64,000 nucleotides of DNA from a virus, in IMG/VR virus record IMGVR_UViG_3300030060_007200; one strand, given 5' to 3'. The notes under the pieces are model-generated. The model saw only the letters and a program-made list of their open reading frames with translations. It was not told the DNA's origin and did not search any database. This document shows positions 167 through 59,270 of this stretch, piece after piece. Within the stretch, counting starts at the first letter, position 1. Every line of letters begins with the position of its first letter. The position numbers were made by a program, and so were the translations under genes.

Positions 167-690
167 TATAAGTCACCTATTTCTAATGCAATTGTTTGAG
201 TGTCCATAGCATTACCTTTGAACATCGACCAATCTATTTTTATATTCATTCTGTTACCATTTGTAGGAGGTTGTTCTACATTAACAGACTTTAGGTCTAC
301 ATAAGGAAGCCATATAGCTACCTGCTCCTTAATCAATTCTTCTAAACCTTCTCTTAAATCTGGTGTATTATTTTCAAAAAGAGATTTCCATACATCGCAA
401 CCAAATTGAGGATGCATAGGTCTTTCACCTCTGTTTGTAAGTACAAGATTTATTAGATTAGATTTTGTTTGCTCTACTGTTGTATAAGATTGTTGAAAAT
501 CACCTCCATCTTTACCTTTACTACTTTCGTTTCTAGGTATTACAGCCGTGTTACTTCCAGAAGGTGCCAATATTTCATAGCTATATCTTCTTTCAGCACT
601 TGCATTATTTGTAAGAGGTAGTGTTAAACCTATTGCTACATCTCTTTCAAAATCAAGCGGGTTGTATTTATATTGAGGTCTTTTTCTCAT
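166..690 (-). CDS. Baseplate wedge protein, gp25/GPW family
   Basis: QTKSNLINLVLTNRGERPMHPQFGC...LFE...WLPYV matches the gp25 signature. Confidence 0.9.
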   Translation of the reverse strand: MRKRPQYKYNPLDFERDVAIGLTLPLTNNASAERRYSYEILAPSGSNTAVIPRNESSKGKDGGDFQQSYTTVEQTKSNLINLVLTNRGERPMHPQFGCDVWKSLFENNTPDLREGLEELIKEQVAIWLPYVDLKSVNVEQPPTNGNRMNIKIDWSMFKGNAMDTQTIALEIGDL

Positions 691-1082
691 TACTTAAATC
701 TTTTTACTAACTCTGAATAATCTCTTGTTAATGCTTTATCTAAACCATCACCTAAATTAGATACGTCTACAGGTCTGTTGTTTATATCTGTCATTTGAGT
801 TGCAGGACTTGCATTACCTTGCATTGCCATAAATTGACTTCTCATGTCACTCTTAAAATTACCCATTGTAGGATAATCTTCAAATTCACCTATTGATGTA
901 TCGTTTAATACCTCGTTTAGCATAGGGTTGTTAGTGTAATTTTTTGTAACCTTTTTTGCTTTTGTTTTTGATACCTGCTTCTCCATCACATTCATCGCCT
1001 CATTAAGCTCTCGCTTAACTTGACTTTTTATTTCAATTTTTACAACCTCTCGAATAAGTTTTACCAATTCTTTTTTTGTCAT
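690..1082 (-). CDS. Hypothetical late protein
   Basis: Probable start MTKKELVKLIRE at 1082, preceded by AAGGAG and a TATTTATA motif. Confidence 0.6.
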   Translation of the reverse strand: MTKKELVKLIREVVKIEIKSQVKRELNEAMNVMEKQVSKTKAKKVTKNYTNNPMLNEVLNDTSIGEFEDYPTMGNFKSDMRSQFMAMQGNASPATQMTDINNRPVDVSNLGDGLDKALTRDYSELVKRFK

Positions 1083-1128
1083 GTGTACACTCCTTAGCTT
1101 TATATATAAATATCTTAAAGAATTGTTT

Positions 1129-1611
1129 TTACACCCAAGGACCGGTTGCACCGTTAGATGTTTGTGTCCAAGTACCTTGTTGTAACCAGTTTGCTATTAC
1201 CTGTCCACAATTCATAGCCCATTGTGTATGAGGCAAACCACCCATTCCTGATGGGAATGTATTTTCTATAGGGCATTGAGTTGGTGGTATTGCTGCAAAT
1301 GCAGGTAAACAACCTGGTGCGTATGTAGCATAGAATGCGTCTATACCTGCCTTTATTATATTACCTTGTGTATCGGCAACATGACTTGTTCCGGATATTA
1401 CACCAAACGCTGCTGCTTCTGCAGCTGCTATTGTTGCTGATGGTGGAAATATAGAAGGCGACGCAAGTTTTAGAGATTCTGCCCAAGCTTTTGCAGTTCC
1501 TGGTGAAGCCACACCTGATACGTCTCCAGCTGGAGGACCTTGAAACAAAGGTGATTCGGCATCAAAATATTTTGCCATGTTGTTTGCAAATATCGGCACT
1601 AAAAAAGGCAT
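1129..1611 (-). CDS. Ala/Pro-rich protein, probably baseplate-associated
   Basis: Abuts the spike gene; function inferred from synteny only. Confidence 0.45.
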   Translation of the reverse strand: MPFLVPIFANNMAKYFDAESPLFQGPPAGDVSGVASPGTAKAWAESLKLASPSIFPPSATIAAAEAAAFGVISGTSHVADTQGNIIKAGIDAFYATYAPGCLPAFAAIPPTQCPIENTFPSGMGGLPHTQWAMNCGQVIANWLQQGTWTQTSNGATGPWV

Positions 1612-2651
1612 TATTGTTTCATCAGCTCCATTTGTCCTTTAAGTAATGTGTATATCGGTGCTTGAACTGGAGGTCCTGATAGACCACATGATGTTGGATG
1701 CGTTTCCTGAGCCAGCTGTGTTAACATTTCCAAAACAATATCTGCAAGTGCACTAACATTTAATTTCCAGGTTGCAGTAGAAAGACCTATTTCTTTTTTC
1801 GCTGAAAGTATTATATTTTCATTTTTTGCATTAAATATAAGTCTGTCTGAATTTATTATTACCTGAGATTTTCCCATATATGCATTTATTGGTAACATAG
1901 GTATTGCAGGTCCTGTAGGTACTGGTACTGTTTGAGCTGCAGGTGCGTTTGCAGGCTTTAGGTCTATTTTTTGTTTACTTGTTAATAGTACTGTAGAGTC
2001 ATTGTCGTTAACATCTTCTATATGAGTATCACCTGTGTCAGCATGTCCATTTGTTATATACATTATAGGGTCACCATCAGCAGAACCTATTGACCATGTA
2101 TTACCAGGCTTACCTAAAAGCTGAGTAGAGCCTAGTCTTATACTATTATCAAACCTACCTTGTATTATTGTATCACCTTCATAATGCTGTACAGGCTTTA
2201 TATCTTTTTCTGGAAATGTTTCACCTAATACATCATTGGTAAATTCAGTATTGTTAAACGCCATATTAGGTACCGCGTTGACATTTGTGTCACCAAACAT
2301 CTGTATAGTATCAACCCAATAAAATTGAGTCTGTCCAGGTCTTATCTGACCACCTAATGAAGGACCTCTTACCAAAAGTACAATCTCTCCTTTAAGAGGA
2401 TATGAAGCTATATTTTTATTTAGAGGCGGAATCCAAGCACCTATCTCTTCCAAATTTTGTGTAGGTCTTTGTCTGTCTTCTCCCAAAAACTTAACCTTAA
2501 CATATCCTATTTCAGCACCTCCAAATTCCGAGTAAAGCCATTCGTGAGAATCGTTCATTACAACATCTACAACCTCACCTGCTGATACAAGAGTGTTTGC
2601 ATTAGAATCATTATTTGTAAAACTTGCTGCTCTTCCTTTATTTCCAAACAT
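1611..2651 (-). CDS. Baseplate hub/central spike (gp5/gpV-like)
   Basis: OB-fold-like N-terminus (GEVVDV...YPLKGEIV), GDTIIQGRFDNSIRLGS, C-terminal HPTSCGLSGPP spike-tip motif; upstream of gp25 and gp6. Confidence 0.7.
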   Translation of the reverse strand: MFGNKGRAASFTNNDSNANTLVSAGEVVDVVMNDSHEWLYSEFGGAEIGYVKVKFLGEDRQRPTQNLEEIGAWIPPLNKNIASYPLKGEIVLLVRGPSLGGQIRPGQTQFYWVDTIQMFGDTNVNAVPNMAFNNTEFTNDVLGETFPEKDIKPVQHYEGDTIIQGRFDNSIRLGSTQLLGKPGNTWSIGSADGDPIMYITNGHADTGDTHIEDVNDNDSTVLLTSKQKIDLKPANAPAAQTVPVPTGPAIPMLPINAYMGKSQVIINSDRLIFNAKNENIILSAKKEIGLSTATWKLNVSALADIVLEMLTQLAQETHPTSCGLSGPPVQAPIYTLLKGQMELMKQ

Positions 2652-2989
2652 TATTTATTGTCCTCTAAATCTTGTACAGAATCTAATAACTGTCTTTTTT
2701 CCGCCTCAGTTAATAAACCTTCTGTGTTATTACCAGTATCTCTTGTCATTGCTCTTTGTACAATTGCTGCCATTTTAATTAAATGCTCATCATTTTTTAC
2801 ACTGACTTCTAAATATTCTTTTATTATAGGTACAAGTATTGTTGCGTCTCCCATGTTTTTAATCATAGGCTGTAATTGTAATATAAGGTCATTTATCTGC
2901 TTTTCTTTTTTAGCAGAATTGTCGTATATATCTTTCAGTAAACCTTCAAAAGATTTACCTTCAAATATTTCGTCTTCGTTTATTGCCAT
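2651..2989 (-). CDS. Conserved hypothetical phage protein
   Basis: 112 aa ORF with TAGGAG SD and a TATTTATA motif upstream. Confidence 0.6.
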   Translation of the reverse strand: MAINEDEIFEGKSFEGLLKDIYDNSAKKEKQINDLILQLQPMIKNMGDATILVPIIKEYLEVSVKNDEHLIKMAAIVQRAMTRDTGNNTEGLLTEAEKRQLLDSVQDLEDNK

Positions 2990-3020
2990 GCTAACACTCC
3001 TATTTATATATAAATATACA

Positions 3021-3052
3021 AAAGAAAAAACCTGGAGCTTTCACCCCAGGCT
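3021..3052 (-). terminator. Rho-independent terminator
   Basis: Minus strand CCTGGGGT-GAAA-GCTCCAGG hairpin followed by TTTTTTCTTTT, downstream of the 3079 gene. Confidence 0.8.
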
Positions 3053-3078
3053 TCTTATTATATAACAATTGTAATTAC

Positions 3079-3303
3079 TTACTTCTTAATAAAGAATGAC
3101 ATCACAACTACTAATACTATCAATCCTACAAATCCACCATTACCTAGTGAATTTACAAGTGCAGTTAAATTAGCAATTACGTCCATTCCAAATACAGTAC
3201 CGCCAGTTAAGACAGTCCATAGGATTGTTACAGGAAGAACTGCCATCATGATTGATAGAAGTCCACCGAAAAATCCATTTACGTATTTGATTGCTGAATC
3301 CAT
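3079..3303 (-). CDS. Small inner-membrane protein
   Basis: Probable start MDSAIKYV after AAGGAGAG; almost entirely hydrophobic helices. Confidence 0.7.
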   Translation of the reverse strand: MDSAIKYVNGFFGGLLSIMMAVLPVTILWTVLTGGTVFGMDVIANLTALVNSLGNGGFVGLIVLVVVMSFFIKK

Positions 3304-3375
3304 AATTCTCTCCTTGTTTTTAATTTTGTTTTGTGGCATTATTGCCAGCGCGCATTTTTGTTAATTTCTAGTTAA

Positions 3376-3786
3376 TTAAAATTTAAGACCAAATCCTAAA
3401 GTAAGATTTGTAGTCTTAAGACCTGTATTGTATACAACTTTAGGGTCAACATAAATACCCTTATGAATTGTAAATAATTTACCTGCACCGATTGCCATAT
3501 TATCAGTACTTAAACCATCAGTCGCTACGTAAGCGAAATATCCTTTCCAGAAATATCTTGCATGAAAGTCTAACTCCATGTCAACTGTTGAGTCTGCTTG
3601 AGCAACTGAACAACCTATCATTAGATTTTCGGTTACACCATACCCTACAGTAGGGCTAACTGACCATTCAGTCCAAGCAACGTTTGCAACATCACCAGTA
3701 CCTACGTACCAGTCACCTTTGTTTTGCGCTTGAGATGCGAAAGCAAATCCACATACTAAAGCGATTGTTAAAATTAAATTTTTCAT
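3376..3786 (-). CDS. Small outer-membrane beta-barrel protein (Bacteroidota type)
   Basis: Signal peptide ending ASQA-Q, KGDWYVG start, amphipathic beta strands, C-terminal LGFGLKF barrel signature. Confidence 0.75.
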   Translation of the reverse strand: MKNLILTIALVCGFAFASQAQNKGDWYVGTGDVANVAWTEWSVSPTVGYGVTENLMIGCSVAQADSTVDMELDFHARYFWKGYFAYVATDGLSTDNMAIGAGKLFTIHKGIYVDPKVVYNTGLKTTNLTLGFGLKF

Positions 3787-3825
3787 ATTAAATTCTCCTT
3801 CTTGTTTTGGTTAGCTGCGCGCTAT

Positions 3826-4596
3826 TTAATTACGAGATATACTCTCATAAATTTTGTACTTCTCTTTGAAGTCACGTTTTATTACATTTACAACTCGAGA
3901 TATATCCTGTGTCTTTTCATTTGTCATTTCTCGAATTAAAACGTATAAAGCCTTTTTATTATATTTTTCTATATTATCTCTACGTCTAAATAATTCCAAT
4001 ACTGCATAAGCTATTTTCTTATCTGCATCTTTATTAAATTTTTCATCTACGCTATTATCATATTTTTCAACAAATAAATCTGTAAAATCTTTTAGCGATT
4101 CTTTTCTTGCAGCTTGGTGTTCTTCATTTGTAACATCTCTTTGCCTGTCGACTGCTAGTAAATTGTCTTTTGATTTTAGTAATTTATATGCTTTGTTATT
4201 TGTTTGTATACAATAGTTTTTTGCTACAATACTAAAATATGAAAATGCTCTACCTTTATCCTCTGTGTATTTTGGAAGTTTTTGTAATAAAAATCCTATT
4301 ACCTCATATTGCTTATCCTCTGTTGTACCATTCATATAAGGAAACTTAAATCTGTTAATTATATTTTGTGATAATTTCCATATAGGATAATGTATGTGTT
4401 CAGAATAAACCTTGTTTCGTTTATGCTGGCTTTTTTCAGCATTGTAAGCTACAATAGCTTTTTCTGTAACAGGTGTAAAATACATTTTGTTTTTTCTTTT
4501 TCTACCTCTCTTACTCTTGCTGTTCATGTACTCAAGAAAATCCTGCTCATATTTTTCAGCGTTTTCGTAAAATATATCTACAGGACTCTTACTCAT
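3826..4596 (-). CDS. Putative late sigma factor (T4 gp55-like)
   Basis: MYFT...AIVAYN and KYTEDKGRAFSYFSIVAKNY resemble the gp55/sigma region-2 (A/P)F(A/S)YF motif. Confidence 0.6.
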   Translation of the reverse strand: MSKSPVDIFYENAEKYEQDFLEYMNSKSKRGRKRKNKMYFTPVTEKAIVAYNAEKSQHKRNKVYSEHIHYPIWKLSQNIINRFKFPYMNGTTEDKQYEVIGFLLQKLPKYTEDKGRAFSYFSIVAKNYCIQTNNKAYKLLKSKDNLLAVDRQRDVTNEEHQAARKESLKDFTDLFVEKYDNSVDEKFNKDADKKIAYAVLELFRRRDNIEKYNKKALYVLIREMTNEKTQDISRVVNVIKRDFKEKYKIYESISRN

Positions 4597-4867
4597 CTTT
4601 TTTCTCCAAATCATTTTTAAGGTCTTCAATAATTCCTTTTAGTTGACTGAATACTTGTCCTATCTCATCGTCAGATTCAAATCCGCCTTTTTGGTCTGCT
4701 GACTTCATTTGCGTATACGCATCATCAAATCTTTTATATAAATTTATTATTATATCTTCTTGCTCTAATACAATGTCCTCTAACTTATCATGCTTTCTTA
4801 GCATGTTAACAATAATATAAGTAGATATTAAAATAACAGGTAGTGTTGTATATAATATCCATTCCAT
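4589..4867 (-). CDS. Membrane-anchored coiled-coil hypothetical protein
   Basis: N-terminal TM helix followed by coiled coil. Confidence 0.55.
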   Translation of the reverse strand: MEWILYTTLPVILISTYIIVNMLRKHDKLEDIVLEQEDIIINLYKRFDDAYTQMKSADQKGGFESDDEIGQVFSQLKGIIEDLKNDLEKKDE

Positions 4868-5622
4868 TATTTAGCCTCTCCAAATAATCCTGAAAATATA
4901 TCATCAACTGATTTATTTGCTGTTGCTGTATCTAAAGATTTTTTCTTGTATGTTTTCTTTGCAGCCTTTTTAACTTCGCCTTCTACCTTGTTAATCTCAC
5001 CTTCTATTTTAGAAGCCATTAAATCTGCTTGATGTAATACCAAAGGCATATTTGTTTTGAAATTTCTATCTGAATTATAGTGTTTGAAGTATTGTGTGTT
5101 TGCGTCATCATATAAACCGTCGTGAACCATAATAGTTATCATTTCGTTTTCAGAAAACTCAATACCAAATTTTTGTAGCAACCATAAACTTCTATGTTGT
5201 ACTGGCATCCAGTTTAGTTCTGAATTTAGATTCCAAAGTGAGCCTTGATTTTTTCTATGCCATTCGCTTGGGTTAGGTACATATAAGTCTTTTTCTAAAT
5301 CACCGTACTTACCTAAGTCGTGATTAAGTGCACAAAACATTAATTCTTCTAATGTATAACCTTCCATACTTGAGCCCATGTGTTTCCAAAGGTCATATGT
5401 ATGCTTTGCTGCTTTACAAACTCTAATTACATGTTCTACATATCCACCTACAAATGCGTTGTGGTAGTTTATGTTACCTGATGCAGGTGTAAACATCATT
5501 CTTTCTTGGAATGACTTATACATAGTTACAAGTTTTTCTTTTCTTTCACCATCAAAATTTTCCTCGATAATATCCATCAAGGAATTCCAGTTTTGTAGTA
5601 ATTGTTCTTCTGTTAAATTCAT
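4867..5622 (-). CDS. HD-domain phosphohydrolase
   Basis: H..GGYVEH, LNHDLGK, HDG and LHQAD motifs. Confidence 0.85.
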   Translation of the reverse strand: MNLTEEQLLQNWNSLMDIIEENFDGERKEKLVTMYKSFQERMMFTPASGNINYHNAFVGGYVEHVIRVCKAAKHTYDLWKHMGSSMEGYTLEELMFCALNHDLGKYGDLEKDLYVPNPSEWHRKNQGSLWNLNSELNWMPVQHRSLWLLQKFGIEFSENEMITIMVHDGLYDDANTQYFKHYNSDRNFKTNMPLVLHQADLMASKIEGEINKVEGEVKKAAKKTYKKKSLDTATANKSVDDIFSGLFGEAK

Positions 5623-6143
5623 GAATTCTCCTCCATTTTGTTTTTAACTCTACTCCAATAATTAACTGTTTGTGGTTTTGCCAATCCTCTTGGTCCACCA
5701 TTCCAGCATCGAGCTATGTGCTCCGGAGTGTTGAGGTTATAGTGATTACAATATATTTTTAACATCTCTATGGATTTTGTACGACTCCATCTATCGTTGT
5801 ATGTATATATTTTATTTTTTAATATTCTGTTAACATCGTCTACCATAGTCTTTCTTATTTGTAAACAACCAACAGCGTCTTCGCTTGCATTATATGCGGA
5901 ATCGTTACCAGAGCTTTCAACAAAAATAAGAGCAGATATCATATTTGTTTCCATATCTACAAAATCATATATTTCCAATCTATTATTTAGAGTGTCTATT
6001 TCTTTATATAAACTATCTATAATATTTTCATACGATTCTAACTCTTTATGCATTTGCTTAATCTGGTTTTCTGAATCAAGCTGCATCATAAGTAACAATG
6101 CCATTGCCGAAACAATGAACAATACATATAATATATTTTTCAT
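5619..6143 (-). CDS. Membrane-anchored lysozyme-like muramidase (i-type/destabilase or SLT-like)
   Basis: N-terminal TM/signal, coiled coil, VES..GCLQI and ARCWNGGPRG motifs. Confidence 0.7.
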   Translation of the reverse strand: MKNILYVLFIVSAMALLLMMQLDSENQIKQMHKELESYENIIDSLYKEIDTLNNRLEIYDFVDMETNMISALIFVESSGNDSAYNASEDAVGCLQIRKTMVDDVNRILKNKIYTYNDRWSRTKSIEMLKIYCNHYNLNTPEHIARCWNGGPRGLAKPQTVNYWSRVKNKMEENS

Positions 6144-6144
6144 A

Positions 6145-6363
6145 TTAGTCAAATAAAATTTTTAATTGTGCAGGGTCTCCGGTTTTTGTGTCTTTACCGA
6201 AATGCTCTTCGACTTGGTTGTTAGAATATCCTAACGCTTGAGCCATACGCTTGCAGGTTCTCTTAAATTCTTCAATAGTTAAATTGTTATTTACTTTGAA
6301 TTCTATAATCTGTGGTTCTTTAGATATCAATGTGCGATGATATGTTAATTTATCTAATGCCAT
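6145..6363 (-). CDS. Hypothetical protein
   Basis: ORF directly downstream of the repeated promoter at ~6390. Confidence 0.55.
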   Translation of the reverse strand: MALDKLTYHRTLISKEPQIIEFKVNNNLTIEEFKRTCKRMAQALGYSNNQVEEHFGKDTKTGDPAQLKILFD

Positions 6364-6427
6364 TCATTTACTCCAATAGTTTTTATTATATACTAATATA
6401 ACAAATTTTTATGAATTATGAAAACAA

Positions 6428-6931
6428 TTAGCTGAATAATTTTGTAACTAGTGATTCTGTAAATTTACCGTTTATTATTTTTGTGTAGTTTTTAATTTTT
6501 CTTGTAACTTCCTTCTTGTCTTTTTTCCAACGAAGGCCTTTTAGTTCTTTTTTAAGGTTTGCTATTTGCAAAGCCGCTTTATCTTTATATTCTTGTTTTT
6601 CTTTCTTAGAAAGTCTTTTCTTCTTTTCAATTTTTGTTGGTTGTAGAGTACCTTTCAGCTTAGGTTGTTCTACTCCTTTATGGTATACATTACCATTCCT
6701 ATCAACAAATTCTTTCATAAAGTGCCAGCCTGATGGTTTACCTGTATTACCTCTAACATTTATTACAGGCGGCTCGGTCATTTCCATTACGCATTCGTGA
6801 CATACAGTAGATGTTGTATCTTCTGAAACAGGTGAAAACTGTCCACATATTTTACATTCCATGTATTTATACAATCTATCTGGATTCTGATTCCATTTAT
6901 GTCCTTTTCTATATTCTATTGCGTATTCCAT
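6428..6931 (-). CDS. Zn-finger, basic hypothetical protein
   Basis: CKIC...CHEC and a Lys-rich C-terminus. Confidence 0.55.
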   Translation of the reverse strand: MEYAIEYRKGHKWNQNPDRLYKYMECKICGQFSPVSEDTTSTVCHECVMEMTEPPVINVRGNTGKPSGWHFMKEFVDRNGNVYHKGVEQPKLKGTLQPTKIEKKKRLSKKEKQEYKDKAALQIANLKKELKGLRWKKDKKEVTRKIKNYTKIINGKFTESLVTKLFS

Positions 6932-6935
6932 ATTC

Positions 6936-7916
6936 TTATTTTTTACCTTTTACTTTATTTCTTATATTATTAAGTATACCGCTTACAGAGTTTATTTTAT
7001 CCTCAAAGTCCTTAATTTTACGTAAACCATTGGCTACCTCACCATTAAGTGTTTCAACTTTTTCTAAGCGATTCATTCCAGACATGTCCAAACCTAAATC
7101 TTCCATCTCGTCTTTAGTTGTTATTCTACTAAATGCAAAGTTTGCTGTTACAACTAATGCTATTGCTAATGGGTCAAATACAAAAACTATTAAAAGTAAA
7201 AACCAATTAACAACCTTATCCATAGTTGCGCCTGTCATGTCTGATAAATATTTTAGAGGACCTAGCTCTCTTTGTTCTTCATTGCCTATTTCCAATTTTA
7301 ATAAATCAGTATCTAATTTCATTATAGAATCTTGTACAGCTTCTAATTTTAGATTTATATTATTTCTATCATCGATTGTTGTATTTAATTCTGACTGCAA
7401 AGCTTTTCTAGCAGATGATGAAGTGGTTGTTATTAACTGGCCAGATTCTCTATCAACATATTGTACCTGTGCTGGATTTGATAGTGAAACCCTTAATTCT
7501 TTTATAGTATTATTTAATTGAGTTTTTTCTATTATTAGGTCGTTTTTATTATCCTCAAATCTATCCTGCTTTACTTGTAATACTGCCAATGACTTGTCTA
7601 AAAACTCAGACTTTGTTGCAGTCTCTTGATATGCTCCTGATAAAAATCCGTATATACCACCTGATGTAATTACCATTAAAACAAATACTGCAATTGATAA
7701 ATATATTTTTAGAGCCTTGCTTATTTCTTTCCAGTATTGGTAAAGCAGGGATGCGGTGACTAACTTTGCAAACTCTAAACTACCAGCCATTATTATTACC
7801 TGGGTACTTGCGCCTGCAAACAGTTTGCTCAAACCAAATACAGAATAAAATGCTGCTGACGCTGAAACTGACAATGCACTAAACGCTATTAAATAAGGAA
7901 GGATTTTTGTTTTCAT
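6936..7916 (-). CDS. Multi-pass membrane protein with a long coiled coil
   Basis: Three N-terminal TM helices, coiled coil, ELGPLKY...VFDPLAIAL TM segment. Confidence 0.7.
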   Translation of the reverse strand: MKTKILPYLIAFSALSVSASAAFYSVFGLSKLFAGASTQVIIMAGSLEFAKLVTASLLYQYWKEISKALKIYLSIAVFVLMVITSGGIYGFLSGAYQETATKSEFLDKSLAVLQVKQDRFEDNKNDLIIEKTQLNNTIKELRVSLSNPAQVQYVDRESGQLITTTSSSARKALQSELNTTIDDRNNINLKLEAVQDSIMKLDTDLLKLEIGNEEQRELGPLKYLSDMTGATMDKVVNWFLLLIVFVFDPLAIALVVTANFAFSRITTKDEMEDLGLDMSGMNRLEKVETLNGEVANGLRKIKDFEDKINSVSGILNNIRNKVKGKK

Positions 7917-8782
7917 GATTTGCTTGGTGGTTGGTTAGAACTATATACCAATGTATATATTACCTTGCCATCTAAATCTTCTTTGATTCTTATTTCAGAA
8001 TCCACAATTCCTAGTTTTTCTATAATTGTTTGAAGCCTAGATATTTTTTCAGAATCATAATTGCTTATACAAATATATTCACCAATAATTGTTACAACCA
8101 TATTGTTGTAGTCATATCTTTTTTCGAATAAATTATATACCTCTTCATCTAAAACAGGTACTAAAGGTAAATCATGTATAAGTCTTTCTGAATAATATTT
8201 TTGATTTTTTATGTCTAAATTTTCAAACCACTTTTTGAATGATGTATAATCACCTTCAAAAATATTTTTGTCATTGTCTTTCATTAACGACCACATCTCT
8301 ACAGTTGTTAATGCCTCGGGTATATATTTTTTATCTTTACCCATTTTCCAAGTACCATCTTTATTCGATTCGAAGTTTGTTCTATATTGCTTAAATAAAT
8401 TTATTAAATTATCTATAGAATTCAACCCCTGTCTATTTGTATCTTTTATTTTAGGTGGCACATAATCTGAGTATGTATTGTCTAACGTTATTTCCTTAAT
8501 AAGTTTTGTTAAACCTTTTTTACCAGAATCTAATAAATTTTTTAGTTCCTGGCATTTTTCGTATTCTTCTGTTTCAATAAAATAATCTATGATGTCATTT
8601 AGAATATCAGTAAGTTCTTTTACATCTAGACTAAATGGGTCGTATAATATATAATGCGTTTCATTACCTGCTACGGCGAAGTTATCGATTTTTGATTTAC
8701 CGGTAACTAACCTATAGGTATTTAGAAATGCTACATCCAAACCTTCAGTGTTTAATTCTTGTGATTCATACGATTCCATCAT
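7913..8782 (-). CDS. Hypothetical protein with a UvrB/UvrC-like coiled-coil motif
   Basis: IDYFIETEEYEKCQELKN. Confidence 0.5.
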   Translation of the reverse strand: MMESYESQELNTEGLDVAFLNTYRLVTGKSKIDNFAVAGNETHYILYDPFSLDVKELTDILNDIIDYFIETEEYEKCQELKNLLDSGKKGLTKLIKEITLDNTYSDYVPPKIKDTNRQGLNSIDNLINLFKQYRTNFESNKDGTWKMGKDKKYIPEALTTVEMWSLMKDNDKNIFEGDYTSFKKWFENLDIKNQKYYSERLIHDLPLVPVLDEEVYNLFEKRYDYNNMVVTIIGEYICISNYDSEKISRLQTIIEKLGIVDSEIRIKEDLDGKVIYTLVYSSNQPPSKS

Positions 8783-8799
8783 ACTCCAATTATTTATTT

Positions 8800-9037
8800 T
8801 GTTACCTCTAACCTCCGAAGCTTATACGGTGTGCTTCTTCTACCGTTGGTTTAGGGTGCCTTATCAGGCAGCCATCGCCATTTCAACTTGTGCGCCAGTT
8901 ATGCGTTGAACTTCCTTATATCCTTTTCACCGTGTCAAATCCAGTCACCCCCATGTTTTAACCTAAATCTTCTTGTGGAGGTGGAGGGTATCGAACCCTC
9001 GTCCAACAATGCAGCTAATATAAGTAATAGCGTTCAA
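8800..9037 (-). ncRNA. ssrA: tmRNA, circularly permuted two-piece form; tag peptide GAQVEMAMAA
   Basis: T-arm/acceptor 3' half (GGAC-GAGGG-TTCGATA-CCCTC-CACCTCC-A, 9004-8976) is transcribed before the 5' half (GGGGGTGACTGGATTTGAC from 8952); G3-U70 pair; tag ORF 8896-8864 after ATAACT, ending AA-TGA-TAA. Confidence 0.9.
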
Positions 9038-9046
9038 ATATAAATA

Positions 9047-9274
9047 TCACTTCTCTACCTGTTTTTTAGGTTTTCTTCTATAAGTTCTGCGATTATTTTT
9101 AGGTGCAGATTTCCTAGAATTTTTTCCAAGTGATTTGATTTCGTTTTTTAGTAATTCATTTACTAGAATTTTATCTTCTAATAATTGTTTAACTGTAACG
9201 AATCTTTTGTTTAGATATAGTACTGTTCCTAATATACCTAAACCAAATGCTAGTATTACTGATAATGTTATCAT
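9047..9274 (-). CDS. Small membrane-anchored basic protein
   Basis: N-terminal TM helix, basic tail. Confidence 0.55.
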   Translation of the reverse strand: MITLSVILAFGLGILGTVLYLNKRFVTVKQLLEDKILVNELLKNEIKSLGKNSRKSAPKNNRRTYRRKPKKQVEK

Positions 9275-9546
9275 TTCTTATACCCTTTCCATGTTCCTGT
9301 TCCCTCTTCAAGCATGCCAAGTCTTTGTCCTACTTTATACATTTTCTGCATATCATACATAGTCTCTATAACTCTATTTGTTTCAGAGAATGTTAATTCA
9401 ATTCTCTTACCATCTATAAAGAATGTACCGATTAAAGGTTGATTAGCATCTCCTTGCGGACGTAATGCTTTAGCTCCTTTCATTAACTCACAGTCAATTG
9501 TTGACCAAACTTTCCCATACTTTTGGGGATTAAATTTCTTTGCCAT
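9271..9546 (-). CDS. Hypothetical protein
   Basis: ORF overlapping the next gene by ATGA. Confidence 0.55.
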   Translation of the reverse strand: MAKKFNPQKYGKVWSTIDCELMKGAKALRPQGDANQPLIGTFFIDGKRIELTFSETNRVIETMYDMQKMYKVGQRLGMLEEGTGTWKGYKK

Positions 9547-9757
9547 GTTTTATTTTTTTTAGCAAATTATGTCTACTCTTTTACATTTAGGATTTTCGAC
9601 TTTCTCCTTAGAATTATCTAATATATTATTTTAATTTATTAGTTAATTATTATATTAGTATACTAATTATTAGTATTATTAGTAATTACTATTATTAGTT
9701 TTTTACTACTAATATATTAAAAATTTCCGACAAATAAAAATATTTTCAGAACTTTTT

Positions 9758-9994
9758 TTATTTTAATGGATATAAACCTTCTAGTAATTGTATCATATAT
9801 ACATTTATCAGGTTTTGTTTATATTCCAATGATTCGTTTTTAGACATTATCTTTTCTATATAATGACATACAGGACTATCAGTCGGCTGTATTATAGCGT
9901 CGGCTCTATATAAATCAGTGACGCCTTCTGCACCATTATACTTAAATGCAGATATAATTCTATCTTTGTCCAAATATCTTTTATTGAACCCCAT
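9758..9994 (-). CDS. Hypothetical protein
   Basis: ORF within the minus-strand operon. Confidence 0.55.
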   Translation of the reverse strand: MGFNKRYLDKDRIISAFKYNGAEGVTDLYRADAIIQPTDSPVCHYIEKIMSKNESLEYKQNLINVYMIQLLEGLYPLK

Positions 9995-10730
9995 GCTTTT
10001 CCTCTTTCAATCTTTTGTTAAATAATCTATTTGATTCGTAATTATATGTATACAAATGAATCACAGATGCCTGGCTCTTACTAGCAGTGCCTGTAAGTAC
10101 ACCTCCATTGAATATTGAAGACATAATTTTATTTCCTTTTGGTATGTGTCCTCCCTCGCCATCAGCTGTCCAAGTTATATCTTTATAATGAGCAACAATT
10201 TTTCCTTTGCATCTTACAAGTATTTCATTAGCCATAGTTTTATATGGCTTGTTTTTATATCCTCTACAATAGTCTATCCAGTCTTTATCGCCGTATGGGT
10301 CTAGCTTTGTAGATTTTCTAACATTTAATACAACTATTTTTCTATCTGTATTTCTTAATTCTTTTTTCAGTCCCCATAGGTCAATGTTTATACCTGTGTT
10401 TAGCTCGTCTTCAAGCCTATCAAATTTCTTAAAATAATGCTTACCTCCATGACCGCGTTTTATATTTAACAGTCCTTCAGGTATACAAATCTGAGGATAC
10501 TTCCAACAAGTTTCTATCAACATTGTTTCGGCATTTGTAGCGTCCTCTTCTGTCTTAAATCTTCCAAGAAGTCTAAACGAATATTCGTTGTTTCTTAACC
10601 AATCGACTTTTTTACCTGTATCGTTTTCTTGTATATGTTGAGTAACTCTATCTGTCTGGCCTTTACCTACGTAAGCATGTAAACCTTTTTTAGAGAAATA
10701 ACCATATACATAATATTTATATGCTTCCAT
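9981..10730 (-). CDS. GIY-YIG-like (LEM-3 type) nuclease
   Basis: YYVYGY...YVGKG..DRV..H...EDA..AETMLI...LLNI..GHG. Confidence 0.65.
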   Translation of the reverse strand: MEAYKYYVYGYFSKKGLHAYVGKGQTDRVTQHIQENDTGKKVDWLRNNEYSFRLLGRFKTEEDATNAETMLIETCWKYPQICIPEGLLNIKRGHGGKHYFKKFDRLEDELNTGINIDLWGLKKELRNTDRKIVVLNVRKSTKLDPYGDKDWIDYCRGYKNKPYKTMANEILVRCKGKIVAHYKDITWTADGEGGHIPKGNKIMSSIFNGGVLTGTASKSQASVIHLYTYNYESNRLFNKRLKEEKHGVQ

Positions 10731-28197: not shown

Positions 28198-29055
28198 CTA
28201 TTCTCCTTTTGAATTTTTTACATATTCTACTTTTATCTTTATTTTTGGCTCGTAACTATCAGGTGTTCTATCATCGATACCAAAATATTCTGATTTATCT
28301 TTATCCATTCTTAATGTAAATTCTAAATCTGTCACATTCATCATTAGCTGGCCTGTGGTAGAAAGAATATCTTTTTCTGTAGGTCCTTTGACCATATCTA
28401 CATTTCTATATGGATTGTTTCTCATATTCTTTGCATGATATGCAGACAAGCCATTTAATACATCGCTAGGTGTTTTTACCTTTGAAAGCATATCTTGTGC
28501 GTATTTCCATCTTAATTCTGATGATTTTTTATTAAGTCCTGAGGTATATCCAGAATCATCATAATCATATCCGTGATTTGTTCTCACATGATTATGACCT
28601 CTATTTAATTTTTTAATAACTGGCTCGTGTTCAGATGTCATTTCTATTGAATATGTATGTTTTGGTGTCGCTACAAATGTATGTCCTTTAACACCAACAT
28701 CTCTTTTGTCGTCACCTTTGAAATTAACTATTGATAATATTGATTCAGACGCTTTTCTAAACATAAGAGCTCGTCTTATTTTTTTACCGTCTTCTGATGG
28801 CTTGCCTTTTTTCTTTGCTAACTTCTTTTCTTTTTCATCTGCATTTACCATAAGAGCAGAATTGATAACAGCAGTACCATAATTATTCATACCTTCTGAC
28901 CAATCAGTATCTTCGTCAACAATATAAACCATTTCTACATCATTGATTAGCTCTCTTACAACTTTAACTCTTGCTGTATAAGAACGGTCTCTATTTTTTG
29001 CTAAAATAATTTTATTATTAACAACAGTATGTGCTATTGTACATTCGTTTATCAT
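28198..29055 (-). CDS. Ntn-hydrolase (Cys nucleophile; C45/C69/choloylglycine-hydrolase-like)
   Basis: Start MINE-CTI after AAAGGAG; LAKNRDR, EGMNNYG and VRTNH motifs. Confidence 0.75.
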   Translation of the reverse strand: MINECTIAHTVVNNKIILAKNRDRSYTARVKVVRELINDVEMVYIVDEDTDWSEGMNNYGTAVINSALMVNADEKEKKLAKKKGKPSEDGKKIRRALMFRKASESILSIVNFKGDDKRDVGVKGHTFVATPKHTYSIEMTSEHEPVIKKLNRGHNHVRTNHGYDYDDSGYTSGLNKKSSELRWKYAQDMLSKVKTPSDVLNGLSAYHAKNMRNNPYRNVDMVKGPTEKDILSTTGQLMMNVTDLEFTLRMDKDKSEYFGIDDRTPDSYEPKIKIKVEYVKNSKGE

Positions 29056-29086
29056 TTGCTCTCCTTTATATATAAATATCAAACTA

Positions 29087-29614
29087 CTATTTAACCAGTG
29101 AAGTTACAATAGTTGTTTCAGGGTATTTCTTTTTAAGAGCGTCGACTGCCTTTATATTTTTAGGTGAATCGTCCATAAAATATATTGGGTCATAACCTTT
29201 TTGAATTTCTTTTTCTATATAATCTGCTTTTTTCTGTGGGTCTCCACTACCTAATGTAATTACATAAGGCTGAATTCCTATTGATTTGAAGAAAGAGTTA
29301 ATTGGTGCGCCAAGTCTTCTCGCTGTAAGTATCGTTACTTTTCTACCACCTTTCTTTAATTGTTTTTTCAATAAATCTGCATTCTTTTTTATTAACCTGG
29401 GATTTCTTATTGGCCTATCAAAATCTCTAAAATCATATGACTGTCCTTTTTTAAGACCTTTATGCACAGCAAACTGTGCCGCATCCAATGTATCTACAAC
29501 ACTTCCTTCATCGTCAACAACATATACCCATGAATCTGATTTTACTAATGTATCATCAAAATCAAAAATGCTTAACATTCTTTTTTCTAATAACAGGTCT
29601 TTTAATTTAATCAT
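29087..29614 (-). CDS. HAD-family hydrolase with a putative capsid-targeting N-terminus
   Basis: MIKLKDLLLE; IFDFDDTL, ILTAR, K and FMDD. Confidence 0.75.
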   Translation of the reverse strand: MIKLKDLLLEKRMLSIFDFDDTLVKSDSWVYVVDDEGSVVDTLDAAQFAVHKGLKKGQSYDFRDFDRPIRNPRLIKKNADLLKKQLKKGGRKVTILTARRLGAPINSFFKSIGIQPYVITLGSGDPQKKADYIEKEIQKGYDPIYFMDDSPKNIKAVDALKKKYPETTIVTSLVK

Positions 29615-30093
29615 AGATACTTTTTCCAATTCTTTTCAGCATTTCTAGCTTGTTTTTCCATAGGATTATTTGTATATCCTTTTTCTCTACCTTGCTTTAT
29701 TTTCTTTGGGTCTTGTGTTGCGTGTGTATATTCATGAAGCATAGCACGTATTACATCTTCCTCAGAATTAAGAGCAGCCTTATATAAATATATAGTATTG
29801 TCTTCATGTACAAATTCAGCATGCTCGTTTTCACCGCCTGGATAATCATCAATTCCACTGTATCTTGCATAAACATTGCTGTGTATTTCGATTTTAGGTG
29901 TACCTTTTCTTGCTCTACCTAAATTTTTAACAACCTGAGGATATATTCTATTAACGATTTTTAATATATCGTTTTTTGACATTCCTTCTGATAGTATTTC
30001 TTTTAATTTTATCATTTTATACGGACAGTTTTTACAACCACAGTTACAACAGAATCCTCGATTTAATAAAAATTCTCTTGATAGAGGCTTCAT
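29611..30093 (-). CDS. Zincin-like (HExxH) protein; in-frame upstream Cys-rich DUF5522-like peptide, second start at 30015
   Basis: RGFCCNCGCKNCPY then MIKLKEILSE; LHEYTHATQ...NPMEKQA. Confidence 0.65.
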   Translation of the reverse strand: MKPLSREFLLNRGFCCNCGCKNCPYKMIKLKEILSEGMSKNDILKIVNRIYPQVVKNLGRARKGTPKIEIHSNVYARYSGIDDYPGGENEHAEFVHEDNTIYLYKAALNSEEDVIRAMLHEYTHATQDPKKIKQGREKGYTNNPMEKQARNAEKNWKKYL

Positions 30094-30286: not shown

Positions 30287-30850
30287 CTACCATTTTCTAC
30301 ATGACCAGTAACGAGCTTTCGTTTTAGGTCCAGGATTATCACAGTTGTGTCTTGCTCTAAATGATTTACGTCTTTCAGGATTGTTCTTTTTGATTCTGTT
30401 CTCTGCACCTTTTGCACCAAAACTAACTTTCTTTACCTTGTCTCCATCTTTAACGTATACCTTAAATTTACTATTACCATCACCTTGCATAGGTTTGTTG
30501 AGTTTAACTTTACGACCTTGATATTCAGCTTCTGAGATGCGTTTAACAGCTTCAACTAACCATTCTGTAAAGCAACCGATGTCTTCCTTTTTAACAAAAA
30601 GTTCATTTTCTGTAATATTATTTATTACCTCATCTAGCTTTCCTTCGAAAAAATACATATCTCTTTGCATCCAACCATCAAGGTTTTCCCATTTACCATC
30701 AACCAAATCGTAATCAATATCATCTGGGTCTTTTACTACAGAAAGCATTGCCTGCTCTCTTTCGTCTTCGCTGGCTTTTTTCCACCATTTTTTGGTAACT
30801 TTTACACCTTTACCAACTCTTCGTTCATTAAGAATTTGTTTTAGCTTCAT
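30287..30850 (-). CDS. Modular putative internal head protein
   Basis: MKLKQILNE; C-terminal EAEYQGRKVKLNKP...SFRARHNCD...ARYWSCRKW module typical of large phages. Confidence 0.65.
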   Translation of the reverse strand: MKLKQILNERRVGKGVKVTKKWWKKASEDEREQAMLSVVKDPDDIDYDLVDGKWENLDGWMQRDMYFFEGKLDEVINNITENELFVKKEDIGCFTEWLVEAVKRISEAEYQGRKVKLNKPMQGDGNSKFKVYVKDGDKVKKVSFGAKGAENRIKKNNPERRKSFRARHNCDNPGPKTKARYWSCRKW

Positions 30851-31823
30851 AATATCTCCATAATTCTTTTCCTAGTTTTTTACCAAATAAAGAATCTGAT
30901 AAAAAATGTTGTTTTGCAATATTTCTACTATATGATATTTCCTCTGCAATTTTCAAAAAACGCATTTTATGCTCAGGATAAATATCACCTAACACATAAG
31001 CTAATAAATAACCTTGCGCTGAATGACCACTTGGATATGATGGTGTCATTGCACTATCGAGAGGTTGGTCATGAAATTTAAGACCATACGATTTAGCAAC
31101 TTGTACAGGTCTAGGTCTATTGTAATGATATTTCAATGATTTAATTATCCATCTTGTTTGTTTCATAACATTTTTCATTAAGTCATAAGAAACATTTATA
31201 TTTAAGTCTTGAGTTCTTTCAATGAAATATTTTTTTATTTTGTCTGCCTTTAATACAAATTCAGGATTAGGTTTTAATTTATCGATTTGCATTAACTCTT
31301 TTCTTGTTTCTATTGAATCGTTAGGTGGAAATGGAAGATTGTGAAAGTTACTGATAGGAAATTCTTTCCATGCACCTTTTTTATCTGACATGTGACTGAT
31401 GGCCTTTTCATCAGGTTCGCCAAATTTTATGTCATTTCTTCCTTCAGTTACCTTATCAGGAAGCTCCTCATAATCTTTCTTAGTCATTTTACTATCCATT
31501 TTCTTTGCAGCTTTTGGGTCTGTCGCAAACATAAATCTTTGTTGTGCCTTGCTAGCAAATTTTTCAAAAAGAAATGAATGTACACCACCTCCTGTACCAA
31601 TACTAGACCATTTGTCATGTTTTATTTTTATTGAAGGATATAATTTTTTTATTGATTTAATTACATCCTTTGGATTTACCTTATATCCATAAAACACACT
31701 CATACCATTTTTATTCAGTTTCGTAACTTTAGGTCTTGTTCTTCCTGAATAATCAATAGATAATTGATATGAAATATCTTTTTTATTTATCTTTTCAAAT
31801 AATATGTTTTGTAATTTAATCAT
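30828..31823 (-). CDS. PAP2/vanadium-haloperoxidase-family phosphatase with modular N-terminus
   Basis: KYHYNRPRP, PSYPSGH, SR.....HF.SD; starts MIKLQNILFE. Confidence 0.8.
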   Translation of the reverse strand: MIKLQNILFEKINKKDISYQLSIDYSGRTRPKVTKLNKNGMSVFYGYKVNPKDVIKSIKKLYPSIKIKHDKWSSIGTGGGVHSFLFEKFASKAQQRFMFATDPKAAKKMDSKMTKKDYEELPDKVTEGRNDIKFGEPDEKAISHMSDKKGAWKEFPISNFHNLPFPPNDSIETRKELMQIDKLKPNPEFVLKADKIKKYFIERTQDLNINVSYDLMKNVMKQTRWIIKSLKYHYNRPRPVQVAKSYGLKFHDQPLDSAMTPSYPSGHSAQGYLLAYVLGDIYPEHKMRFLKIAEEISYSRNIAKQHFLSDSLFGKKLGKELWRYYEAKTNS

Positions 31824-32161
31824 CGGTTTAAGTATTGTCGCCATTTACTATAATCAGGTGCCATATTAGTTCCACCAACATTAACATTAGCTTTTAATTT
31901 ATCTTGAGCATCTAAGTAAGTTGTACGTCCACTTGTGATTTGAAAAGCAAATTTCTTTTTAAGGTTAACAGCAAATAGACCACCAGGCAGACCAATTAAG
32001 AATGTACCTTTAGGAACTTTGGCATAACTTTTACCAGCCATTTGTGTTCCTACACCAGGAATACCACCAGCTGGACGAGTATTATATTTTACCATTGCAT
32101 CTTTTAATATGATAGCTTGGAAGTTAATTCCTTCTCTTAATATGTCTTTTAATCTTGCCAT
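31820..32161 (-). CDS. Hypothetical putative internal head protein
   Basis: MARLKDILRE N-terminus. Confidence 0.55.
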   Translation of the reverse strand: MARLKDILREGINFQAIILKDAMVKYNTRPAGGIPGVGTQMAGKSYAKVPKGTFLIGLPGGLFAVNLKKKFAFQITSGRTTYLDAQDKLKANVNVGGTNMAPDYSKWRQYLNR

Positions 32162-35391: not shown

Positions 35392-35628
35392 CTATTTTGT
35401 CATTCTTTGTGTCCAATCTTTTAGCTTATCCTGCAGTTGTTTTTTAATTCCAGGTCCTCTAAAAGTTCCGCCTATCTTCATTGCGTCTTTGATAAAGCTA
35501 TTATATTCTTTGTTCCATTTTACTACCAAAGTTTTTTCAAAATCATTTAATAATTTTGCTCGCTCTTTGTCTTCGCCTTTTGAGATTGTTCCGTCAGGAT
35601 TAGCCTCAATAATTTTTTTTAATTTCAT
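35392..35628 (-). CDS. Small putative internal head protein
   Basis: MKLKKIIE N-terminus. Confidence 0.5.
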   Translation of the reverse strand: MKLKKIIEANPDGTISKGEDKERAKLLNDFEKTLVVKWNKEYNSFIKDAMKIGGTFRGPGIKKQLQDKLKDWTQRMTK

Positions 35629-54078: not shown

Positions 54079-54575
54079 TATATGTTACCTAATGCGAATC
54101 CTTTTACTTTTTTACAAGCTTCGAGATAGCTTACAAAATATTCTGCCTTTTCCATATTTACTTTAGAATTAAAATCGCCTTGTGCATATTCACGAAGTTC
54201 TTCTTCTGTTAAATCACTGACAGGAGCATAGCACCATTTTATTTGATGGTCGCCGGTAGTCTCACCTGTCGATGCGTCTTTTAATTGTACAGTACCAACA
54301 GGAAAAACCATACATTCCATAGTTTGTATTGTTGCAGGGTACCAATAAGACTCACCATCGTCATGTCTTAAGTCCTTGATTATATCAGGCATACCTTCTT
54401 CATATTTACTTATATCAAAATCTGGATGTTTTTTGTAATTTAGTGGATATTCGTTTGTATAATATCCTGAACTTAAATCCATTTTTGATTCTCCGTTTTT
54501 ATCATCGTTTTCACAAAGAACCATTTCTCTTCCTGTTATCGGGCTTTTTTCCCATACGTCTACTTTTTTATTCAT
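54078..54575 (-). CDS. Hypothetical protein
   Basis: ORF track. Confidence 0.5.
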   Translation of the reverse strand: MNKKVDVWEKSPITGREMVLCENDDKNGESKMDLSSGYYTNEYPLNYKKHPDFDISKYEEGMPDIIKDLRHDDGESYWYPATIQTMECMVFPVGTVQLKDASTGETTGDHQIKWCYAPVSDLTEEELREYAQGDFNSKVNMEKAEYFVSYLEACKKVKGFALGNI

Positions 54576-55848
54576 ATGTCTGTAACTCCTCTAAATTAGG
54601 TACCTCAAAATCTTCAACAGATGCTGCAGGTAGATATTTTTCTAATATATTTTCAAATTGACTAGTCATAACATCTAATGTGAAATTATCTTTCATATAC
54701 TTTGTCTGCTTTCTTGTTTTTTCTAAATACTTTTTATAGTTTTTATATACATCTCTAATCACACCTGATGCGTATTGATAATTAACATAAAACCATTGTG
54801 AGTCTTCCTGAATAACTTCCTTCCAAACAGTTGATTTGTGAACCTGTTTTAATTCACCTGGTAACATTATACCATTTTGTTTGATAAAATCAACATGACC
54901 TGACCAATCTGAAACAATTACTGGCTTTCCTGTAATTGAAAACTCTGCTAGCGGTCTACCATAACCTTCACCGTGTGTAAATGATACCATTGCTTTAACC
55001 TTTGGATGGTTATATAATGAATTCATTTCAGAATCAGTTAGATTACCCCAAACTAAATATATATTAGGTATTTTTGTTTTAGCATCCTGAAATGGAGCGG
55101 TAACATCTTTTATTTTCTGTATAACATTATTTCTTTCAGTAACACTAAATCCTATACCTGTTTTTAATATAATACCTGGTATGTTCTTTTGTGATTTATT
55201 TTTGAAACTTGTAATAATTGTATGAAGTGTACCTCCTATATCTTTTCTATCATGTGTAAATCCACCATTCATCCAGTGGCCACAAATAAGAAAGTTAAAA
55301 TCTTCTTTTATAGAAGAAAGTTGCTTTTCGATTTTAGGCTCTATTTTATCTGTCTTGTTAAAAACAGATGTGTCGATACCTTCCATCAAAATTTCTATAG
55401 GTTTATTCAAAGCCAGTGTCTCTACAACCTCTCCTGTTTGTTGATTCATTTTATCATAGGTACATGTAAATCCTCTAACTGAATGCTCTGAAGGTACGAT
55501 GTTCATATCCATTCTGTTCATACCTTCTAACCATTGAGGTGATACTCTATCAGTTTCAATACCTGCAGTAATACCTATATTGTATTTACCTGCTCTCATA
55601 AACTCATTAGGTACAGTAACTTGAATCCAAATGTCAGGTTCTTGTTGAATTGGTTGTGTTGCTATCAATTCCATTATATCACTATCATTTTCAGTTAGTG
55701 CATCTTTAGGACAATTACCCCATCTTTGGTCGATTATTTTTATATCGTATTTATTCATTTTAATCAAACTTCTGATTAAATCTCTACTATGGTTTCCGTA
55801 ACCACTTCTTGATGTTGACGGACAACTAATAACTATTGTTTGTTTCAT
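54568..55848 (-). CDS. Glycosyltransferase family 4
   Basis: SGYG.HSR, RKD and HGEGYGRPLAEF..TGKPVI...WSGH.DF. Confidence 0.9.
   Translation of the reverse strand: MKQTIVISCPSTSRSGYGNHSRDLIRSLIKMNKYDIKIIDQRWGNCPKDALTENDSDIMELIATQPIQQEPDIWIQVTVPNEFMRAGKYNIGITAGIETDRVSPQWLEGMNRMDMNIVPSEHSVRGFTCTYDKMNQQTGEVVETLALNKPIEILMEGIDTSVFNKTDKIEPKIEKQLSSIKEDFNFLICGHWMNGGFTHDRKDIGGTLHTIITSFKNKSQKNIPGIILKTGIGFSVTERNNVIQKIKDVTAPFQDAKTKIPNIYLVWGNLTDSEMNSLYNHPKVKAMVSFTHGEGYGRPLAEFSITGKPVIVSDWSGHVDFIKQNGIMLPGELKQVHKSTVWKEVIQEDSQWFYVNYQYASGVIRDVYKNYKKYLEKTRKQTKYMKDNFTLDVMTSQFENILEKYLPAASVEDFEVPNLEELQTYE

Positions 55849-59269: not shown

Positions 59270-59270
<1 letters not shown>
59022..59270 (-). CDS. Zn-ribbon protein
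   Basis: CSKCG...CTECGH. Confidence 0.6.

Follow-up and report, generated by a model that had tools for sequence, protein, structure and literature searches.

The 64,000-nucleotide stretch of DNA from a marine T4-type phage analysed here, IMG/VR record IMGVR_UViG_3300030060_007200 (the window), encodes on its minus strand a 285-residue protein, P0001, which begins M-I-N-E-C-T-I-A-H and is predicted to be a cysteine-type N-terminal nucleophile (Cys-Ntn) hydrolase with Cys5 as its nucleophile. We consider it rather likely that this nucleophile is exposed in trans by the phage's own S77 prohead protease, which would cut the bond between Glu4 and Cys5. An initial annotation, made from the letters of the sequence, had described the gene as a protease-gated effector that is inactive in the producing cell, switched on during head maturation and delivered to the next host. 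The enzyme class, the protease site, the presence of the protease and the sharing of leaders with neighbouring genes held up under analysis; the cellular relatives starting with M-C, the obligatory off-state, and the packaging and delivery of the window's own copy were not supported by it.

Fold and predicted nucleophile of P0001

Single-sequence searches with P0001 gave nothing useful in Pfam, PHROGs or the PDB sequences (phmmer), and a profile of 56 sequences of its family gave 0 matches to PDB sequences. The fold therefore had to be established by structure. The AlphaFold2 model built from the 56-sequence alignment had a predicted local distance difference test (pLDDT) score of 90.7 and a predicted template modelling (pTM) score of 0.90. 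Its best Foldseek match in the PDB was isopenicillin N acyltransferase (IAT; 2x1c, E value of 8e-10), and further matches included choloylglycine hydrolases, penicillin V acylases (PVA), NAAA, C69 dipeptidase and phospholipase-B-like proteins. Alignment of the model with VIA-align gave Z scores of 21.1 to 16.4 across 50 Ntn entries and revealed the four-layer alpha-beta-beta-alpha fold; for IAT, NAAA, acid ceramidase, bile salt hydrolase (BSH), PVA and C69 enzymes, whose mature chains begin with Cys, the scores were 17 to 21. Residue 5 of P0001 was placed opposite the first mature-chain residue of IAT (C103), NAAA (C126, C128 or C131), acid ceramidase (C143), BSH (C2), TANGO2 (C2), PVA (C1) and C69 dipeptidase (C9). 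In precursor structures, the last propeptide residues lined up with residues 1 to 4 of P0001. This superposition of both the fold and Cys5 identifies P0001, at the level of the model, as a Cys-Ntn hydrolase with Cys5 as its nucleophile, as the initial annotation had proposed.

The following residues were invariant in the 56-sequence alignment: C5, K20, R22, D23, R24, Y26, G55, N57, N65, G124, N160, G169 and R182. N21, T159 and H161 were kept in at least 90% of the 56 sequences, and R158 was invariant only in a 12-sequence alignment. R22, D23, N57, N65, N160 and R182, chosen by their invariance in the alignment, are candidates for the auxiliary catalytic residues of the superfamily, namely an Arg/Asp about 17-20 residues past the Cys, an oxyanion Asn and a distal Asn and Arg. 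The KNRD at residues 20 to 23 and the RTNH at residues 158 to 161, which the initial annotation had pointed out together with the Shine-Dalgarno (SD) sequence and M-I-N-E-C-T-I, were all confirmed by direct reading of the open reading frame (ORF).

With respect to named families, the NCBIfam model C45_proenzyme (NF040521) gave a sub-threshold score for P0001 (E value of 2e-5, 24 bits against a cut-off of 85), and Pfam AAT (PF03417) gave no match to it by hmmscan; the AAT cut-off (23.2 bits) was passed by the relatives P0141, P0167 and P0118 at 25 to 31 bits. P0001 is a distant C45 relative, not a scored C45 member. Its Arg/Asp pair 17 to 18 residues past the Cys and the conserved Asn and Arg residues that follow are candidate counterparts of those in the C45, C59 and C69 enzymes, but its sequence similarity lies under the family cut-offs and it has no alpha-subunit. 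A further difference lies at residue -1, which is Glu in a protease-site context in P0001, Gly in IAT and PVA, Phe in NAAA and Ile in acid ceramidase. IAT, NAAA, acid ceramidase, BSH/PVA and the C69 enzymes mature by self-processing or Met removal. From its fold, P0001 is predicted to act as an amide hydrolase or acyltransferase, and nothing narrower.

TANGO2 structures (8sv7 and 9bwa) were matched with Z scores of 16.5 to 16.7, residue 5 lying opposite residue 2, and giant-virus NRDE and TANGO2 proteins were among the BFVD matches. The motif of that family, an N-terminal Cys followed about 15 to 20 residues later by NRD(E/R), resembles the KNRDR of P0001. Nevertheless, P0001 had no hmmscan match to that Pfam family at E values up to 1, and TANGO2 proteins start with M-C and have no leader, a start that is seen in 22 relatives of P0001.

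Residues preceding the catalytic Cys

The residues before the Cys were compared in 332 distinct homologue contexts, which fell into three main groups and 7 odd cases. The largest group, with 222 contexts, had Glu at -1 (P1); 81 contexts had Ala, Ser or Gly at this position, and in 22 the Cys was preceded by a bare Met. Within the Glu class, P3 was Leu (113), Ile (93), Val (11), Thr (2), Met (2) or Phe (1), so that Leu, Ile or Val was present in 217/222, while P1 was Glu in 222/222 and never Asp, and P2 was free, with at least 12 different residues. The expectation of the initial annotation that phage homologues would keep (I/L/V)-x-E directly before the Cys was thus borne out for most contexts. 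Of the related viral loci, all 79 with an identified Cys also kept I-x-E, and this tripeptide before the Cys is far beyond chance.

The length of the leader in the Glu class ranged from 4 to about 350 residues. Very short leaders (MINE, MLNE, MKLNE, MRIDE, MRLLE, MVEE, MKITE and others) all retained [ILV]-x-E. In a tree of the domain there were 8 changes between short and long leaders, with leaders of six residues or fewer recurring, and M-C starts had at least 3-5 separate origins. [ILV]-x-E has been retained in minimal leaders although bare M-C starts also evolved as a viable alternative.

A putative T4-type cleavage site and a prohead protease in the same genome

The T4 prohead protease gp21 cuts after Glu in I/L-x-E (PMC12991175). 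In the 10-residue capsid targeting sequence (CTS) of T4, targeting depends on positions 4 and 7 and processing on positions 8 (P3) and 10 (P1), the latter being blocked when position 10 is Asp; Alt loses only 7 residues (PMC9026906). At the level of sequence, the [ILV]-x-E rule of the P0001 family matches this I/L-x-E preference.

To place the window in its genome, a 143,306-bp Tara contig was reached via the window's gp25-like protein, and its head module was found by walking the contig. The stretch of this contig that was compared was 100.000% identical to positions 1 to 10690 of the window, and by coordinates the overlap would extend to about 13.8 kb. The head genes are arranged in the order terminase, Portal_T4 (E value of 7.4e-78), two small genes, Peptidase_S77, two genes of about 355 residues, a bS21-like gene, an acidic 327-residue protein and Gp23 (E value of 4.6e-77). 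The Peptidase_S77 protein (PF03420; L261:11297-11929, same genome) has 210 residues and was matched with an E value of 3.7e-33 and 115 bits against a cut-off of 27. Judged by these genes, the phage of the window is a T4-type myovirus. The claim that P0001 carries a T4-type prohead-protease site is in keeping with the conservation seen at -1 (Glu) and at -3 (aliphatic), with the S77 protease of this phage, and with the CTS-like leaders of neighbouring genes described below. Among the IMG/VR relatives of the Glu class, S77 was found in 13/17 contigs, including 6/6 of those with at least 90% completeness, and Chryseobacterium phage MA9V-2 also has an S77 domain.

Two observations were made on these head modules. 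The bS21-like ribosomal protein gene (PF01165, a weak match; L261:14173-14517, in the same genome but outside the window) comes after the prohead protease and before the major capsid gene. In MA9V-2 (L002, OR513085.1, about 167 kb) the S77 domain lies inside a 1213-residue open frame, and the paper on MA9V-1 lists a 4,044-nucleotide "prohead core protein serine protease" gene, which suggests that the protease of the Chryseobacterium phages is fused to other head-core modules.

The arrangement resembles that of the T4 internal proteins IPI, IPII, IPIII and Alt, in that a short N-terminal leader ending in (I/L)-x-E is common to unrelated proteins encoded side by side, and an S77 prohead protease, a T4-type portal and Gp23 are encoded in the same genome. 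T4 ejects such cargo into the host that it infects next (PMC9026906, PMC3012670). P0001 differs in that the residue after the putative scissile bond is the predicted catalytic nucleophile, so that cutting would create an active site in addition to releasing the protein from the core, and in that the window's copy retains just the cleavage tripeptide. In phiKZ and SPN3US, many head-packaged enzymes are trimmed after Glu by a gp21-related protease at (A/S/G)-x-E, and the propeptides of ejection proteins vary in length and sometimes contain several sites (PMC5694885). The P3 rule (A/S/G) is different in those phages, and there is no reported case among them in which cleavage yields an Ntn nucleophile.

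Shared leaders and fused modules

Five to six genes upstream of P0001 carry a CTS-like leader of the form M(I)KLK(D/E/N/Q)(I/L)L-x-E (Table 1). In other lineages the genes around the Ntn gene share leaders of their own, namely MKNLIRxILxE, MNLQESIRRIL(R/K)E and MIKL(I/T/L)(D/E)(I/L)LxE, and MNLQESIRRILRE is also a shared leader among these lineages. The Ntn proteins of loci L061 and L064 begin MIKLLDLLKE or MIKLIDLLKE, with the Cys directly after the shared leader, and the pattern MIKLxxxLxE is common to the Ntn enzyme and 5 to 8 unrelated neighbours. These neighbours have no Cys for self-cleavage and therefore cannot remove the leader by Ntn chemistry.

The same boundary is found in fusions. 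In P0034 and P0073 an HExxH module 54% identical to that of the window is fused N-terminally to the Ntn domain, with the junction DLNE|C, and in P0068 a HAD module 52% identical to that of the window lies behind the Ntn domain, with L-A-E (MLAE|HAD) at the place where the leader of the window's HAD protein ends in L-L-E. Such arrays and fusions of leader-tagged enzymes (PAP2, HAD, HExxH and, in other clades, poly(A) polymerase-like, SOD, ChaC and topoisomerase IB domains) look like injected toolkits. The lipid- or acid-phosphatase (PAP2) encoded in the window would be an unusual head cargo.

P0001 has only MINE, in contrast to its upstream neighbours and to relatives such as L061 and L064, which carry full CTS-like leaders of about 10 residues. 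Its 83%-identical relative P0012 reads MIKLKDIISPKINE|C, and in a DNA comparison the codons for MIKLKDIISPK in P0012 correspond to the upstream motif plus SD of the window, the window's ATG replacing the Lys codon at P4. This comparison indicates that the window's clade lost the targeting half of the leader and retained the cleavage half.

A sister clade with a different sequence before the Cys

In the class with Ala, Ser or Gly at -1, Lys or Arg was found at P3 in 80/81 contexts, and in the tree this [KR]-x-[A/S/G] group formed one clade nested among Glu-class sequences. Of the two protease families searched for, neither S77 (0/8) nor S78 (0/8) was found in the eight [KR]-x-[A/S/G] phage contigs, most of which are incomplete; one of the eight has direct terminal repeats. 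As the clade arose once, the contrast in S77 between 13/17 and 0/8 contigs represents one switch and does not count as a set of independent events. The clade has a tag of its own before the Cys, RVASR[YWF]...[KR]x[AS], which also occurs before non-Ntn modules and at C-termini; RVASR[YWF] had 15 matches in [KR]-x-[A/S/G] loci versus 1 in Glu-class loci. The Ntn domain of this clade is often at the head of, or within, polyproteins of 500 to 2400 residues, together with poly(A)-polymerase-like, SOD, 2'-5' RNA ligase, ChaC and topoisomerase IB domains. Since this sister clade has the same invariant catalytic residues, the core evidently tolerates quite different residues before the Cys, which argues against [ILV]-x-E as a chemical requirement of self-cleavage.

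Large phage contigs of up to 288 kb (L100-L118 and L097; P0159, P0165, P0167, P0193, P0257 and P0258) encode polyproteins of this kind, in which a tRNA-ligase CPD domain also occurs and RVASR[YWF] recurs at module boundaries and at C-termini; no S77 or S78 protease was found in these contigs.

Proposed activation by the prohead protease and its alternatives

Taking these data together, we suggest that the Cys-Ntn amide-bond hydrolase or acyltransferase would be inert until the bond before Cys5 is cut. A gp21-type Peptidase_S77 would cut in trans after Glu, and I-N-E|C would set the scissile bond right at the nucleophile. In relatives with a full leader of 10 to 13 residues, common to unrelated neighbouring genes, this leader would initially direct the proenzyme to the prohead core, like the CTS of T4; the protease would then strip the leader, and the active enzyme in the head would leave together with the DNA at ejection. 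The MINE copy of the window would have to enter the head by other means, or be activated late in the infected cell, after the protease has become active. By extension, phage lineages may re-tailor the tripeptide before the Cys to their own processing system, [ILV]-x-E with S77 and [KR]-x-[A/S/G] plus RVASRY where no S77 was found, making capsid assembly the on-switch of the enzyme; we regard the chances for and against this extension as evenly balanced.

Several points weigh against activation in trans. Ntn hydrolases are textbook self-activating enzymes, and self-processing is seen in each of the closest folds (IAT, NAAA, acid ceramidase, C69 dipeptidase and PVA), which gives a strong prior for autoprocessing. 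A propeptide removed by the enzyme itself can be short, having 3 residues in PVA, and the 11-residue propeptide of Bacillus subtilis PurF ends in E|C. A foreign protease may have difficulty in reaching a nucleophile that lies, as in the model, at the start of a central strand. The MINE of the window is without CTS positions 4 and 7, so that under T4 rules it would be expected to confer neither core targeting nor packaging; the delivery to the next host that the initial annotation proposed is accordingly in doubt for this copy, the targeting part of its leader being replaced by the motif and SD. Masking is also not obligatory, given that M-C forms occur in S77-bearing phages (4/6), and the off-state in the producing cell that had been supposed is therefore not required. 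Finally, the co-variation with S77 comes down in essence to a single switch during evolution.

The main rival is autoprocessing, in which the bond between Glu4 and Cys5 would be broken by the proenzyme itself through an N-to-S acyl shift; [ILV]-x-E would be a family-specific requirement of this reaction, and the longer leaders would have a targeting role or no role at all. The closest relatives in structure are autoproteolytic, the nearest NCBIfam model is named "C45 family autoproteolytic acyltransferase/hydrolase", very short propeptides are known in PVA, and leaders of four residues, which could hardly target, are common in the family. Autoprocessing nevertheless leaves unexplained the protease-like rule at P3 and P1, under which P2 varies freely and P1 is never Asp, the same Glu-ending leader on unrelated non-Ntn neighbours, the L-x-E at the HAD boundary in fusions, and the change to [KR]-x-[A/S/G] in a clade where no S77 was found. 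We therefore consider autoprocessing doubtful, even with the precedent of its relatives behind it. Unlikely, in our estimate, is a sub-case of protease activation that differs only in the place of action: the MINE form would be cut in the cytoplasm late in infection and act in the producing cell without packaging, for example on envelope or metabolite amides before lysis. The absence of the targeting part from the P0001 leader and the M-C forms, which demonstrate that the producing cell can tolerate the enzyme, are consistent with such timing, as is the cleavage of a soluble host CD-NTase by T4 gp21 from about 14 min (PMC12991175). However, relatives with complete shared leaders look like packaged cargo, and autoproteolysis restrains gp21 activity outside proheads (PMC12991175). 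That another protease, from the host or the neighbouring HExxH protein, makes the cut seems very improbable; HExxH-Ntn fusions with the junction DLNE|C do exist, but the site rule fits S77 proteases. The HExxH neighbour as processing enzyme was rejected separately, no such ORF being found within 10 kb in 53 Glu-class loci.

CTS-tagged head cargo processed by gp21 is already known, and so are Ntn hydrolases. The literature search found nothing uniting "Ntn hydrolase" and "prohead protease", and as far as this search shows an Ntn nucleophile generated in trans and tied to capsid maturation has not been described, in agreement with the novelty that the initial annotation had claimed. If activation by the prohead protease is correct, it would represent a new gating of Ntn hydrolases, in which the nucleophile is unmasked by another enzyme, a capsid-maturation protease, and a new use of the T4 targeting and processing system, with an active site being built by cleavage and cargo not just set free. 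If lineages do re-tailor the tripeptide before the Cys to their processing system, this tripeptide could be used as a readout of the specificity of an uncharacterised protease. Such putative toolkits would be easier to interpret once the way in which they are armed is understood. Direct tests could be made in the cultured Chryseobacterium phages MA9V-1 and MA9V-2; the published protein analysis of MA9V-1 is by SDS-PAGE.

Distribution of the family

A word-index search found 171 homologous proteins, and the family comprised 442 clusters at 50% identity and at least 540 IMG/VR contigs. When 50,697 isolated phages were searched by tblastn with three family members, MA9V-1 and MA9V-2 were the only carriers; the Ntn homologue in these two begins MTSANNNEFLNE|C. 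A megablast search with 20 kb of the window likewise covered 50,697 phage records and gave no match. Cellular homologues, which the initial annotation had expected to start with M-C, were essentially lacking: of two scans across 185,579 prokaryote species, each represented by one genome, one yielded no match and the other a single match, and the M-C forms were instead found in phages, some of them bearing S77. The single match was a contig of a metagenome-assembled genome, of the [KR]-x-A class with an RVASRH tag, and is probably phage DNA. The ESM Atlas clusters of the family were 96 to 100% viral. Given these clusters and the near absence of cellular matches, the family is essentially phage-only; it is large, without annotation and almost confined to phages.

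The gene, its upstream signals and its neighbours

The P0001 frame opens with ATG at 29055, followed by ATA AAC GAA TGT. The coordinates of the gene, its signals and the leader-bearing genes upstream are collected in Table 1.

Table 1. Coordinates of the P0001 gene, its leader and upstream signals, and the neighbouring genes with CTS-like leaders
Feature	Coordinates	Strand	Basis or remark
Coding sequence of the 285-residue predicted Cys-Ntn hydrolase (P0001)	28198..29055	minus	ORF and translation; stop codon counted in
Four-codon leader M-I-N-E, putative prohead-protease site (I = P3, E = P1)	29044..29055	minus	Sequence; [ILV]-x-E rule in relatives
TGT codon, Cys5, predicted N-terminal nucleophile	29041..29043	minus	Invariant in alignment; superposes on known Ntn nucleophiles
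SD-like AAAGGAG	29061..29067	minus	5 nt upstream of the ATG; direct reading
Palindrome TTATATATAAA, the "late-type motif"	29065..29075	minus	Direct reading and window scan
HAD-like phosphatase, leader MIKLKDLLLE	29087..29614	minus	DxDxT motif; weak PHROG 415 match
HExxH protein, leader MIKLKEILSE	29611..30015	minus	Upstream neighbour
DUF5754 protein, leader MKLKQILNE	30287..30850	minus	Upstream neighbour
PAP2 phosphatase, leader MIKLQNILFE	30828..31823	minus	PF01569, E value of 1.6e-13
113-residue protein, leader MARLKDILRE	31820..32161	minus	Upstream neighbour
78-residue protein, leader MKLKKIIE	35392..35628	minus	Near copy of TTATATATAAA upstream

The "late-type motif" of the initial annotation is present as the palindrome TTATATATAAA. 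The window contains 4 exact sites (1099, 3003, 13173 and 29065) and one copy with a single mismatch at 35661, and all five lie 10 to 33 nt 5' of an ORF start. Allowing at most one mismatch, 28 sites were observed in the window versus 13.8 expected, and 0/100 shuffles reached 28. The copy in front of P0001 abuts the SD so tightly that use of a -10 element is hard to reconcile with use of an SD at this place; TTATATATAAA is a possible late promoter or translational element. Three of the five genes downstream of its copies hold [ILV]-x-E within their first 12 residues (MAINE..., MINE|C and MKLKKIIE).

Other features of the window

A full-length GroEL is encoded at 59270-60886 on the minus strand (PHROG 5725, E value of 5e-159), and an adjacent 97-residue ORF at 60888-61181, also on the minus strand, has the look of a GroES/gp31-type co-chaperonin by its N-terminus alone. 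Between 42099 and 57254 on the minus strand there is a long run of sugar-metabolism-like genes, judged mostly from the N-termini of the ORFs, within which matches to the PHROG 2170 glycosyltransferase were found at 54568-55848 and 55848-57254.

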